Source: Escherichia coli
Lineage (GTDB): Bacteria > Pseudomonadota > Gammaproteobacteria > Enterobacterales > Enterobacteriaceae
Reading direction: 5' to 3' (one strand)
Length of the DNA: 64,000 nucleotides
Assembly: GCF_044647545.1 (NCBI RefSeq)
Contig: NZ_CP172818.1
A program made the position numbers and the translations under genes. A model generated the notes under the pieces. That model did not search any database and had not been told where the DNA came from. It worked only from the letters and a program-made list of their open reading frames with translations. Below are positions 2,488-33,682 of the stretch, piece by piece. The first letter of the stretch is position 1, and every line of letters starts with the position of its first letter.

Positions 2488-2520
2488 AGGTCGGATAAGA
2501 CGCACAAGCGTATCCGACAC
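2488..2520. repeat. REP-like palindromic unit downstream of cca
   Basis: Imperfect palindrome ggtcggataagacgc...gcgtatccgacac in intergenic DNA. Confidence 0.45.
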
Positions 2521-2530
2521 TATTCCTCAA

Positions 2531-3352
2531 TCAAAAGAACACGACATACACCGCAGCCGCCACAATAAAGCGATAAATGGCGAACGGAATAAACGAAATG
2601 CGCTTAATCAATTGCAGGAAGGTTTTAATCGCTATCAGCGCCACCACAAAAGCGGTGATAAACCCAACGGCAAACATCGGGATATCGCCGGTTGTCAGGA
2701 AGCCCCAGCTTTTGTAGAGATCGAGCGCCGTTGCGCCCATCATCATCGGCACAGCCAGCAGGAACGAGAACTCGGAAGCCGCATAACGGCTCACACCCAT
2801 CAGCATCCCACCTGAAATGGTCGCCCCGGAACGGGAGAAACCCGGCCACAGCGCCAGACACTGGAAACAGCCAATCATAAACGCCTGACGATAGGTCATA
2901 TCATCAAGACCCGGCGCACGCGGCTCTTTCGGCTTCAGGCATTCAGCGGCAATCAGCAACAGACCGCCAACGACCAGTGCATACATCACATTTATCGGGT
3001 TAAACAATGATTTAATCGTGTCGTGGAACAACAGCCCCAGTACCACCGCCGGAATCATCCCCAGCAAAATGTGGATCAGCGTTAAACGGCCTTTGCTTTC
3101 TCCTTCGTGCTGCAACGGGCGACCAAAGTGAATACCAATAAGGCCAAACAGACGTCGCCAGAACATGACAACCACAGCCAGAATTGATCCTAACTGGATC
3201 ACGACTTCAAAGGTTTTCGCCGTGTCGCCCTCAAACCCCAACAAGTGACCGACAATAATCATATGGCCCGTGCTGGATACCGGCAGAAATTCTGTCAATC
3301 CTTCGACCACACCCAATATTGCCGCTATCAGCAGCGAGTGCATATCGCTCAT
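2531..3352 (-). CDS. bacA: undecaprenyl-diphosphate phosphatase
   Basis: ORF 2531..3355; protein [32 protein letters not shown]..., 273 aa from second Met; multi-TM. Confidence 0.9.
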
Positions 3353-4545: not shown

Positions 4546-5478
4546 TTACATGACCTGATAGCCTTCGTCGGGCTTGCCCAGCCGTTGCTGGCACCATGCC
4601 GCCAGAAATTCCACGCAGACACGTAATTTCATGCTGCGATAGAGCGGCTCCCGGTAAACAGCCCAGATATTGGCGCTTTGTGCATACTCCGGCAATACTC
4701 GCACCAGTTTGCCACTCTCCAGAAACGGCAACACATCCCACTCGGAACGCAACATAATCCCTTTGCCCTCCAGCGCCCATTGCAACACTATCTCGCCGCT
4801 ATTGGAGGAAAGATGCCCGCTTACCTTCACCGATTTTTTCTCCTGACCGTTCCCCAACTCCCATATTCCGTGGGTCATATCGCGCTCTTTGGTCACCAGA
4901 CAATCATGACGACTTAATTCCTGTAAGGATTGTGGCTGCGGATATTTTTGCAGATACTCAGGTGCTGCGCATAATATTCTTTTATTTTTCGTTAACAGAT
5001 GCGCAATATAATAATCAGGAATTTCGTCATTAATACGAATATCCAGATCAATATTATCCTGCACTAAATCAATTTGCCGATCGAACAATTCAAAATGCAC
5101 CTGTAACTCAGGATAATTGCGCATCAGTTCGGTAATGGCTGGCGCAATATGGCTGCGCCCAAAACCAAAACTGCAACCAATACGAATCATCCCCTCCGGG
5201 CGCGTTTTGATTTGCGTGACGTCATCGACCAGTCGCTGATATTGGGTGAGGATTTCCAGCGCATGCTCGTAACAACGTTGGCCACTTTCAGTCAGCGCCA
5301 CACCGCGAGCGGAGCGGTTCAGCAGCGTTGTTGCCAGCGTATTTTCAAGGATTTGGATCCGCTTGGTGACAAATGCAGGCGTCTGCCCAAGCGTCGCCGC
5401 TGCAGCACTAAAACTCCCGCTGTGGACGATTTCTACCAGTACCTGCAAATCTTTGGCTAAAGGCCAGCTATTCAGCAT
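4546..5478 (-). CDS. ttdR: LysR-family transcriptional activator of L-tartrate genes
   Basis: ORF 310 aa with N-terminal HTH; divergent from ttdA. Confidence 0.85.
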
Positions 5479-14904: not shown

Positions 14905-14940
14905 AAAGGCTGACGAGAAATCGTCAGCCTTTTTCTTTTT
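14905..14940 (+). terminator. rho-independent terminator after ileX
   Basis: Hairpin ggctgacga-gaaa-tcgtcagcc followed by tttttcttttt. Confidence 0.65.
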
Positions 14941-14949
14941 ATATATCAG

Positions 14950-15714
14950 TTACTTTGCGTGCCAGTAAGCCGCTGCACGTACCCGCTGTGGGTCATACTG
15001 TTCCGCTTCAAAGCGGCGGCTTAAATTCTTAACGACTTTGCCTTCGCCGGTTATCCAGATGAAGTAATCATCGGCAGGGATTTGCATCTGCGCCAGACGC
15101 GCATCTACCGCCTGCTCATCATGCGCCAGCCATTCGATATTAAAACCATCAAGGTGCGCGAGATAATCCTGGCAGGCGTGATCCCGCACGCTAACCAGTG
15201 CGCTAACTTGCGGTTTAACAGCAAGTTTGCTCAACGTTTCCAGGCGGCGGCGCAGTGCGGGCATTCCGGATTCATCGCAGACATACAGCTGATACGCGTA
15301 ATCCTCTGGCACCACCAGCGAACCGCGCGGACCTGCCACCGTGAGTTTATCGCCCGGTTGCGCCTGCATTGCCCAGCTGCTGGCGACGCCACCGTCGTGA
15401 ATAAAGAAATCAATCGCCAGTTCATGGCGTAGTTCGTCATACAGCGGCGTATAGTCACGCGACGGTGGGCGTGGTCCTTCCGGCCAGACGATGCCCTCTT
15501 CCGTTACCGTTGGCGGCACAAAGTGAGCATCAGATTGAGGAAAGAAGAGTTTGCTGTGATCGTCAAAGCCGCGCGATGTAAAACCGTCCAGCGCCTCGCC
15601 GCCAAGGACAATGCGCTGAAAACCGGCGCTAATACGCTCAGCGCGTAGCACAGTCAATTCACGGAAGCGCAGATCATTGCGAACGCGCTGCGGGTAGCGG
15701 GGGGAGTTATTCAT
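14950..15714 (-). CDS. yqjH: NADPH-dependent ferric-siderophore reductase
   Basis: ORF 254 aa; ViuB/FAD-binding siderophore-interacting fold; Fur box upstream. Confidence 0.85.
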   Translation of the reverse strand: MNNSPRYPQRVRNDLRFRELTVLRAERISAGFQRIVLGGEALDGFTSRGFDDHSKLFFPQSDAHFVPPTVTEEGIVWPEGPRPPSRDYTPLYDELRHELAIDFFIHDGGVASSWAMQAQPGDKLTVAGPRGSLVVPEDYAYQLYVCDESGMPALRRRLETLSKLAVKPQVSALVSVRDHACQDYLAHLDGFNIEWLAHDEQAVDARLAQMQIPADDYFIWITGEGKVVKNLSRRFEAEQYDPQRVRAAAYWHAK

Positions 15715-15737
15715 TGTTATCGCCTTCGTGATAGTAA

Positions 15738-15752
15738 TCAGATATATCTAAA
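15738..15752. promoter_or_regulatory. palindromic candidate operator (core agatatatct) near yqjH promoter
   Basis: Perfect 10-bp palindrome agatatatct at 15740-15749; second copy at 15959-15968. Confidence 0.4.
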
Positions 15753-15761
15753 TAAATTTCG

Positions 15762-15790
15762 CAAATGATAATGATTGTTAATCATGATAA
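15762..15790. promoter_or_regulatory. Fur box in yqjH promoter region
   Basis: aatgataatgattgttaatcatgataaat resembles Fur consensus GATAATGATAATCATTATC. Confidence 0.55.
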
Positions 15791-15853
15791 ATGCAAGCGA
15801 TTTGTAGAACTGATATATCTGAAGTATGAGAAGACATTCAGCGTCGTAGCAAG

Positions 15854-15890
15854 GCTGCCGGATGCGGCGTGAACGAATTATCCGGCCTGG
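15854..15890. repeat. REP-like element in yqjH-yqjI intergenic region
   Basis: gctgccggatgcggcgtgaacgaattatccggcctgg. Confidence 0.45.
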
Positions 15891-15956
15891 ATGTGAGGTG
15901 TATTCACGTTTAAAAATCATTTTTATACTTGCAAAAGCGCTCATATCAGATATAAA

Positions 15957-15970
15957 TTAGATATATCTAA
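15957..15970. promoter_or_regulatory. 14-bp perfect palindrome, candidate YqjI operator upstream of yqjI
   Basis: ttagatatatctaa is its own reverse complement; lies about 20 bp upstream of the yqjI start. Confidence 0.4.
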
Positions 15971-15990
15971 TTAAGCAAAAGGAGGCTGAT

Positions 15991-16614
15991 ATGAGCCATC
16001 ATCACGAAGGGTGTTGTAAACATGAAGGCCAGCCACGCCATGAAGGCTGCTGCAAAGGTGAGAAGTCAGAACATGAGCACTGCGGACACGGTCACCAGCA
16101 TGAACACGGTCAATGCTGCGGTGGTCGCCACGGTCGCGGCGGCGGTCGTCGGCAGCGTTTCTTTGGTCACGGTGAATTGCGTCTGGTGATTCTGGATATT
16201 CTCTCGCGCGATGACAGCCACGGTTACGAATTGATTAAAGCGATTGAGAATCTAACCCAGGGGAATTACACCCCAAGCCCGGGCGTCATCTACCCAACGC
16301 TGGATTTTCTGCAGGAGCAGTCGCTGATTACCATCCGCGAAGAGGAAGGTGGTAAGAAGCAGATTGCACTGACCGAACAGGGCGCGCAGTGGCTGGAAGA
16401 AAACCGCGAACAGGTGGAGATGATCGAAGAACGCATCAAAGCGCGTTGCGTTGGTGCTGCACTCCGCCAGAACCCGCAAATGAAGCGGGCGCTGGATAAT
16501 TTTAAAGCGGTGCTGGATTTACGCGTCAACCAGAGCGATATCACTGATGCACAAATAAAAAAGATCATTGCGGTGATCGACCGCGCCGCTTTTGATATTA
16601 CCCAACTGGATTAA
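15991..16614 (+). CDS. yqjI: PadR-family metal-responsive transcriptional repressor with His/Cys-rich N-terminal tail
   Basis: ORF 207 aa; N-terminus MSHHHEGCCKHEGQPRHEGCCKGEKSEHEHCGHGHQHEH... Confidence 0.85.
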   Translation: MSHHHEGCCKHEGQPRHEGCCKGEKSEHEHCGHGHQHEHGQCCGGRHGRGGGRRQRFFGHGELRLVILDILSRDDSHGYELIKAIENLTQGNYTPSPGVIYPTLDFLQEQSLITIREEEGGKKQIALTEQGAQWLEENREQVEMIEERIKARCVGAALRQNPQMKRALDNFKAVLDLRVNQSDITDAQIKKIIAVIDRAAFDITQLD

Positions 16615-20472: not shown

Positions 20473-30383
<9,911 letters not shown>

Positions 30384-30392
30384 TTAGCAACG

Positions 30393-30482
<90 letters not shown>

Positions 30483-32671: not shown

Positions 32672-33088
32672 TTAATCAATAAACAAGGCGGGAGAAATAC
32701 CGAATCGCGTTGCCAGTTTTTTAGCGTGTTCCAGCGTTAATTTCCTCTTCCCGCTCAAAACGCGTGACACCATCGATTTACTGCCTATTTCCGGAAGATC
32801 GGAAAGGGTTAAACCATATTGATCCATAAGGGTACGAATCACGGCTATACCGCCAGGCATGGCTTGAGCCATGGCATTAAATTCCACAAATTCGGGCGCT
32901 GATTCTTCCCACGCGGTTATTTTGGCACACACCAGATCCAGTAAGGGGTTTTCAGGATCGTTGAGCAGCAGATGATCTACCAGTTCCAGCGCCTGGGTGT
33001 ATTGTTCCTCGTTCTGAATACCCGCCAGAAAAGGTGCCACAGCAGTTAGCTTTTCTCCTGCTTGCAAGATGTCGGCAATCGCAATCAT
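32672..33088 (-). CDS. higA: HigA antitoxin (HTH-XRE)
   Basis: ORF 138 aa MIAIADILQAGEKL...; start ATG overlaps the expected higB stop (ATGA). Confidence 0.85.
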   Translation of the reverse strand: MIAIADILQAGEKLTAVAPFLAGIQNEEQYTQALELVDHLLLNDPENPLLDLVCAKITAWEESAPEFVEFNAMAQAMPGGIAVIRTLMDQYGLTLSDLPEIGSKSMVSRVLSGKRKLTLEHAKKLATRFGISPALFID

Positions 33089-33398
33089 TTTTTCCCCTTA
33101 GTACGATGAACGGCGGTAAAGAAATCGTATTCTTTATGCGTCATAACTTCACGTATGTAGCACTTTTGCGATTCAAAAAAGACCATTGCTACAACACGTA
33201 ATTCATTGCCCCGACATTGAAAACATAATGCTTATCCAGATATTTGAAGTTATCCAGAGAAGGGAATACTGCTTTTAATGACTCAGGTTTTTTGAAATAT
33301 CCCTTAGCAATCGTGTTCCCCAGAGCCACCAACTCCGTTTTATGTTGCGGGTATTTTTCCGCAGCATCTTTCAATGCTTTTTGAGTTATCAGGTGCAT
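33085..33398 (-). pseudogene. higB: HigB mRNA-interferase toxin, disrupted by -1 frameshift in a G-run
   Basis: ORF track shows only 69 aa (33189..33398) ending ...NVGAMNYVL*; adding one G to the G4 run (plus-strand cccc 33209-33212) restores ...NVGGNELRVVAMVFFESQKCYIREVMTHKEYDFFTAVHRTKGKK* (104 aa) ending at the TGA overlapping higA. Confidence 0.75.
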
Positions 33399-33579
33399 TC
33401 TTCATCACGTCCGTTGACAAATTGGCAATATGATAACATCCGTTGACAGATTGGCAACGAATGAATTTATCTGTGTGACGGAAGAATAAACGTAGAAAAA
33501 CGCTAAACAAGAGAATGTAGAGGATGGTGACAGGAATTTTTTGTTTTATGGAAGCGCGATTCCAGAACTGGGCAGACAT

Positions 33580-33670
33580 TGCCGGATGCGACGCTTGCCG
33601 CGTCTTATCCGACCTGGGGGTAATGTGCTGAACGTATGCCGGATAAGGCGTTTACGCCGCATCCGGCAGG
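33580..33670. repeat. REP elements between higB and rlmG
   Basis: gccggatgcgacgcttgccgcgtcttatccgac...gccggataaggcgtttacgccgcatccggc. Confidence 0.55.
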
Positions 33671-33682
33671 TAACCCCCAATC

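Follow-up and report, generated by a model that had tools for sequence, protein, structure and literature searches.

The window analyzed in this study is a stretch of 64,000 nucleotides from Escherichia coli (contig NZ_CP172818.1), in which the gene neighborhood near 33 kb reads ygjK-fadH-higA-higB-rlmG. In the window the higB locus is a decayed, not a functional, member of the HigBA family of type II toxin–antitoxin modules. Its features are the following.

32672-33088, minus strand: higA, the antitoxin and autorepressor gene, intact, encoding 138 aa; the frame is open and the helix-turn-helix is C-terminal.
33085-33398, minus strand: higB pseudogene of 314 nt, against 315 nt and 104 codons in the wild type.
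33085-33186, minus strand: remnant of the old frame, a 33-codon ORF running from the native Met72 ATG to the TGA that overlaps the higA ATG.
33094-33099, minus strand: Shine-Dalgarno-like AAGGGG, 5 nt 5′ of the higA ATG, from sequence reading.
33189-33398, minus strand: truncated ORF of 69 aa ending ...NVGAMNYVL*, with its TAG stop at 33191-33189.
33209-33212, minus strand: G4 run in codons 63 to 65, the site of a 1-nt deletion (G5 in the wild type), as placed by alignment with SK1144 and K-12.
33404-33428 and 33433-33457, minus strand: two 25-nt direct copies, 88% identical and spaced by 29 nt, putative HigA operators.
33430-33457, minus strand: sigma-70-like operon promoter, TTGCCA, 16 nt, TATCAT, with TG before the -10 and 10 of 12 matches.

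The plus strand reads CCCC at 33209-33212, that is, GGGG on the minus strand, and the toxin frame is lost past codon 64 with a stop at codon 70, leaving no intact frame for a complete fold. The truncated product consists of HigB residues 1 to 64 followed by five out-of-frame residues (AMNYVL, the first A standing in place of G65). Addition of one G in silico brought the gene to 315 nt and restored a frame of 104 codons with the C terminus ...HRTKGKK*. The stop codon of this frame, TGA (33087-33085), overlaps the start codon of higA, ATG (33088-33086), in a toxin-first order. A first-pass annotation, made from the sequence alone, had described the stop after 69 codons, the G4 run and its repair by a single G, the overlap of the repaired TGA with the higA ATG, and an intact higA; all its coordinates were correct, the first two readings were exact in the sequence, and the other two were confirmed, higA also by the protein that it shares with an intact-higB relative (see below). 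The RefSeq/PGAP label on identical sequence is a 'higB, frameshifted' pseudogene, and in the annotated relative closest to the window, 44 features lie in the first 50 kb, the frameshifted higB being the sole pseudogene among them.

The first-pass annotation had left room for the wild-type HigB being something other than the reconstructed 104-aa frame. This was ruled out by comparison with known HigB proteins. The repaired HigB matches chain A of PDB 5IFG, the crystallized HigB mRNA interferase of E. coli K-12, at 104 of 104 residues (100% identity), and it is likewise identical to HigB in 6KML and 5YCL. The intact protein, WP_000550189.1, is common to K-12 MG1655 and SK1144, and the Pfam model HigB_toxin (PF09907) matches residues 20 to 92 of the repaired frame with E=4.4e-22, which places the protein in that family. 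In precomputed data, a weak PF09907 match persists on the truncated 69-aa fragment. NCBIfam HMMs gave zero matches for HigB, truncated HigB, or HigA, and Pfam was used instead; the PGAP naming of the two proteins evidently came about via a rule other than these HMMs. Experiments have established HigB of K-12 (YgjN) as an mRNA interferase that depends on translation and is neutralized by HigA (YgjM), and K-12 higBA is autoregulated through a single Lon-dependent promoter 5′ of higB, which HigA represses (PMC2814082).

To place the frameshift in the fold, a single-sequence AlphaFold model of HigB (mean pLDDT 77) was used. The model has helices at residues 6-15, 17-32, 38-44, and 88-101 and strands at residues 49-54, 57-62, 69-76, and 79-87, and it puts the frameshift in a loop that joins the second and third β strands. 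The 69-aa product retains all three N-terminal helices and predicted strands 49-54 and 57-62, while the predicted strands 69-76 and 79-87 and the helix 88-101 are lost, amounting to 40 of the 104 residues. Without these two strands and the C-terminal helix, the product would not be expected to fold into a ribosome-dependent mRNA endonuclease, and judging from the model and from the homologue SehA (see below), toxicity of HigB is very likely lost in the G4 allele. In our reading, one G of the G5 run in higB was lost in the ancestor of the clone, most likely through replication slippage. Translation now leaves the frame after Gly64 and meets a stop five codons later, and the 69-aa product, devoid of strands three and four of the RelE-type fold and of its C-terminal helix, is probably inactive.

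The antitoxin gene has been left untouched. HigA matches Pfam HTH_3 (PF01381) at residues 84 to 135 with E=2.5e-7, the helix-turn-helix of an antitoxin of this kind, and the protein WP_000560269.1 is identical in the clone that carries the G4 allele, here called ST648 after the strain names given by depositors, and in SK1144, where higB is intact. Relative to HigA of O104:H4 and K-12, the gene of the window shows seven synonymous codon differences and one non-synonymous one, the residue difference from K-12 being V68 versus A68. The AAGGGG sequence ahead of higA would allow its translation uncoupled from higB, and from the roughly 100 nt of A/T-rich sequence between the new stop and higA there is no reason to expect strong polarity on higA.

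Upstream of higB, the promoter and both operator repeats are identical to those of SK1144. The putative HigA operators overlap the -35 element and lie downstream of the -10 element, and each of the 25-nt copies holds an imperfect palindrome (CGTTGCCA-N-TGTCAACG). An inverted-repeat search of the promoter at seed 6 found none because the arms of the palindromes are interrupted, and the palindromes were read from the alignment instead; inverted repeats of higBA have been mentioned as putative binding sites (PMC2814082). Operator 1 of K-12 (33433-33457 in the window) forms a perfect palindrome of the 9+3+9 type, CCGTTGCCA atc TGGCAACGG, from which both the window and SK1144, whose higB is intact, depart at one position by a G-to-T mismatch in one arm; this mismatch is unrelated to the frameshift. 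As the promoter, the operator repeats, the ribosome-binding site of higA, and its coding sequence are all unchanged, the locus should still produce HigA, which would go on repressing its own promoter, and the locus would in effect be an orphan antitoxin and repressor. Farther upstream, a search of window positions 33530-33674 against Rfam returned only sub-threshold naRNA4 matches, corresponding to REP-type palindromic elements between rlmG and higB that have no bearing on the frameshift.

The first-pass annotation had posed two explanations for the missing G, decay of the toxin or a homopolymer miscall, and had proposed comparison with other E. coli higB alleles. We surveyed 5,426 complete E. 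coli genomes with a 70-nt probe centered on the G-run, where an exact span of 70 nt corresponds to G4 and one of 71 nt to G5. The probed stretch of higB was present in 2,826 genomes, 58 of them with G4 and 2,768 without it; these 2,768 were classed by the G-run alone, and all those sampled had the 71-nt span of G5. As one defined difference from 2,768 other genomes, the missing G raises no question of chance. The 314-nt allele of the window recurs identically in 57 of the 5,426 genomes, and the 58th G4 genome, N4220121, differs from it by an extra A in the A-run before the higA ATG. This A (at about 5089-5096 of record L002, corresponding to window positions 33089-33093) sits between the Shine-Dalgarno sequence and the ATG of higA and could be either a real change of spacing or a homopolymer error.

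The 58 G4 genomes are precisely those that match the window at ~100% over 12 kb, with the next identity being 99.0% (SK1144 and AR_0089), and within this clone variation amounts to at most ~3 differences per 12 kb. The clone includes a strain deposited as 'ST648' as well as strains whose names stand for ST648 in published work. In SK1144, the nearest outgroup, the run is G5 and higB is intact, and the 1.1-kb higBA region differs from that of the window only by the G and one synonymous change in higA; in ST131 genomes, higB differs from that of the window by the G only. The G4 run is thus restricted to one clone, and relatives with an otherwise identical higB have G5. Among complete genomes (~2,800), the alternative GTT flank type never carried G4, and the GTC flank type never carried G6. 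In public assemblies (NCBI, JGI/IMG, ENA, and Logan), the exact 69-aa product was present on at least 1,000 contigs and in 2,855 index blocks and sat between rlmG and higA in every place read.

That the strain is truly G5 with an intact higB and that its assembly lost a G is an explanation to which we give next to no credence. Such errors do occur at this site, and the GenBank-only record CP026872.1 (L013) offers an example: at its positions 2501-3226 it has G4 on the GTT flank, in an unrelated lineage whose flanks reach only 95.9% identity to the window, and other homopolymer deletions split its higA and ygjQ genes, and its G4 is probably an assembly error. The 69-aa 'protein' found in databases is hence not always the ST648 allele. 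In the window, however, drop-outs of the type found in L010 to L013 are absent, and the 5.2 kb around higB are 100% identical to those of L009. Moreover, the G4 run is lineage-specific, being present in 58 of 58 genomes of a clone sequenced by many laboratories over many years, and 2,768 genomes that share the same local context do not have it. G4 is therefore not a matter of single or error-prone assemblies scattered without regard to phylogeny; it follows the boundaries of the clone, which a sequencing artifact tied to context would not do, and we conclude that the deletion is real and inherited. Of the two original explanations, decay that leaves an orphan antitoxin is the one supported, and a miscall is rejected for this window.

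The position of the lesion in a homopolymer raises the question of whether the G-run could be a contingency tract in which slippage would switch higB between on and off, given that a +1 slip could in principle reverse it. Yet the tract is just 4 to 5 nt long, all 58 genomes of the clone are G4, and among ~2,800 genomes there is not one G4 on the other flank nor one G6; tract length thus varies neither within the clone nor among its close relatives, and we regard a phase-variable switch as exceedingly improbable. Residual toxin could also be made by recoding or from two pieces. On GTC GGG GCA, a -1 shift would bring the ribosome back into frame by reading GGC again, but C GGG GCA does not fit the X XXY YYZ pattern, and neither a slippery heptamer nor conservation of the two frames across lineages is found. 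As for reinitiation, the premature TAG and the native in-frame ATG of Met72 are a mere 2 nt apart (GTG TTG TAG CA ATG GTC), and the remnant ORF of 33 codons runs up to the ATGA that it shares with higA, so that coupling to higA would be restored. Against this, no Shine-Dalgarno-like sequence precedes the internal ATG, the fragments do not include residues 65 to 71, which form part of the predicted third strand, and the arrangement is confined to a single recent clone rather than conserved. The pattern matches a fresh pseudogene and not an evolved recoding site, and residual toxin by either route appears very unlikely to us. More specifically, that HigB residues 1-64 and 72-104, made through reinitiation coupled to higA, reassemble into a weak, attenuated toxin is more doubtful still; if true, the ST648 clone would carry a naturally split toxin–antitoxin module of low activity.

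The 69-aa N-terminal fragment might instead have been retained for a role unrelated to toxicity, for example as a co-repressor or stabilizer of HigA. In keeping with this, its ORF, start, and promoter are untouched, 57 of the 58 copies are identical with no secondary decay, and some resemblance to PF09907 remains. The absence of secondary decay, however, is equally predicted by the youth of the clone (no more than ~3 differences per 12 kb), and ~1,458 genomes delete higB and yet keep higA. Since higA is kept elsewhere where higB has been deleted, HigA does not need the HigB fragment, and we judge a retained function improbable. We hold it highly probable that the G4 run of higB is a real, vertically inherited loss-of-function mutation that leaves an orphan antitoxin and repressor. 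It is an ordinary, lineage-specific pseudogene of a well-studied toxin gene that is already annotated publicly, and in the literature on toxin–antitoxin systems of ST648 and on frameshifts or pseudogenes of higB we found no paper describing the G4 allele.

The closest known counterpart is HigB-HigA of K-12 (YgjN-YgjM; Christensen-Dalsgaard et al. 2010, PMC2814082), which occupies the same locus between rlmG and fadH and has the same toxin-first order, ATGA overlap, and two-repeat promoter region, with a HigB 100% identical to the repaired one. The difference in the window is the one missing G, with which the toxin frame ends at codon 69. The sehAB system of Salmonella provides a more distant comparison. 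SehA (of SehA-SehB) is 40% identical to 5IFG, on which it was modeled, and most substitutions that abolish its toxicity map to the C-terminal helix (bioRxiv 10.1101/2024.07.09.602740). It is a toxin of the same Pfam type, and its critical C-terminal helix corresponds to the part lost from HigB in the window; SehA nevertheless belongs to another species and locus, and another mechanism has been claimed for it (inhibition of RNase III), so that the support it lends to inactivation is indirect.

Loss of higB in E. coli extends beyond the G4 clone. In the 5,426 complete genomes, higA was found in 4,376 and the middle part of higB in only 2,826, and about 1,458 genomes retain no more of higB than its last 78 nt while keeping higA. 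In the O104:H4 strain FDAARGOS_348 (L004, 1004-1278; approximately window 33162-33486), an example of these genomes, a 324-nt deletion has taken out the promoter together with the two operator repeats and the opening 236 nt of higB, and higA is intact; no sigma-70-like site remains upstream of higA in this allele. The outcome is the same as in the window, namely no functional higB and an intact higA, except that the window keeps the promoter and the whole gene body. As both the frameshift and the 324-nt deletion keep higA, toxin loss with retention of the antitoxin is recurrent at this locus. A third state of the locus was found in Z0117EC0051 (L007, 1566-1684), where higBA is absent and rlmG adjoins fadH directly, and ~1,050 genomes had no match to higA. 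Z0117EC0051 also has an extra gene, encoding a hypothetical protein of 513 aa, between fadH and ygjK. In the ST648-like strain DFL.5 (L008, 9666-11301), which shares 99.9% identity with the window across its first 25 kb, an IS1-bounded deletion reaches from ebgC to a fimbrial usher gene, and ygjI...higBA...exuT are gone.

These losses agree with a wider pattern in E. coli, in which orphan antitoxins are abundant (PMC10790755): toxin repertoires shrink in its lineages while antitoxins stay, and anti-addiction or regulatory roles have been proposed for the latter. In the same study (mBio 2023), the toxin count of ST648 (phylogroup F) is comparatively high; the G4 allele of higB is not mentioned, and higB figures in the Pfam table only. 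We considered an anti-addiction role for the orphan HigA. PLSDB holds 1,056 records with HigB-family toxins, mostly from Klebsiella, and these plasmid toxins are only ~30-40% identical, so cross-neutralization is unsupported. The only 'plasmid' copy of the window-type higB is in PLSDB record NZ_CP141089.1, a 4.94-Mb E. coli entry that is evidently a chromosome filed as a plasmid.

On its own, the G4 allele matters little and is an example of a familiar process. Judging from the truncation, a widespread multidrug-resistant clone that includes the strain 'ST648' would be without a working chromosomal HigB, and its set of stress-inducible mRNA interferases would thus be smaller by one than that of K-12 or ST131. 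This is relevant to users of higBA as a marker and to studies of persistence in this lineage. With the toxin lost by several independent routes (frameshift, 324-nt deletion, and complete absence) and higA usually kept with few amino-acid changes, the locus offers a convenient natural series in which to study the function of an orphan antitoxin.

Several other differences were seen elsewhere in the window. Relative to FDAARGOS_497, recombinant and indel differences lie outside a core of 27-45 kb, and the higBA region is identical. The ygjI gene, which encodes an amino-acid permease (25389-26811), is split into ORFs of 317 aa and 194 aa by an 11-nt deletion relative to FDAARGOS_497, with the deletion point at about 26197. 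This deletion is found in 31 complete genomes, some of them outside the higB-G4 clone, and is annotated as 'frameshifted'; alongside higB, it makes ygjI another genuine pseudogene of the window, one whose phylogenetic distribution differs from that of higB. At 14939-16464 (nfeF-nfeR), the window carries ~80 substitutions relative to FDAARGOS_497 that are absent relative to clone members such as ECONIH1, which looks like a recombination patch separating sub-lineages. Two differences are private to the window: about 18 nt are missing from the cca-bacA intergenic region (2471-2510) relative to all complete genomes compared, and a GCC/CGG triplet is swapped at 30459-30461 in a REP-like element between ygjK and fadH. 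Finally, from 45466 to beyond 50000, next to exuT, where K-12 has exuR directly after it, lies a CS1-type chaperone-usher fimbrial operon that comprises a CfaE/CblD-family adhesin, a TcfC-like usher, and a CS1 major subunit.
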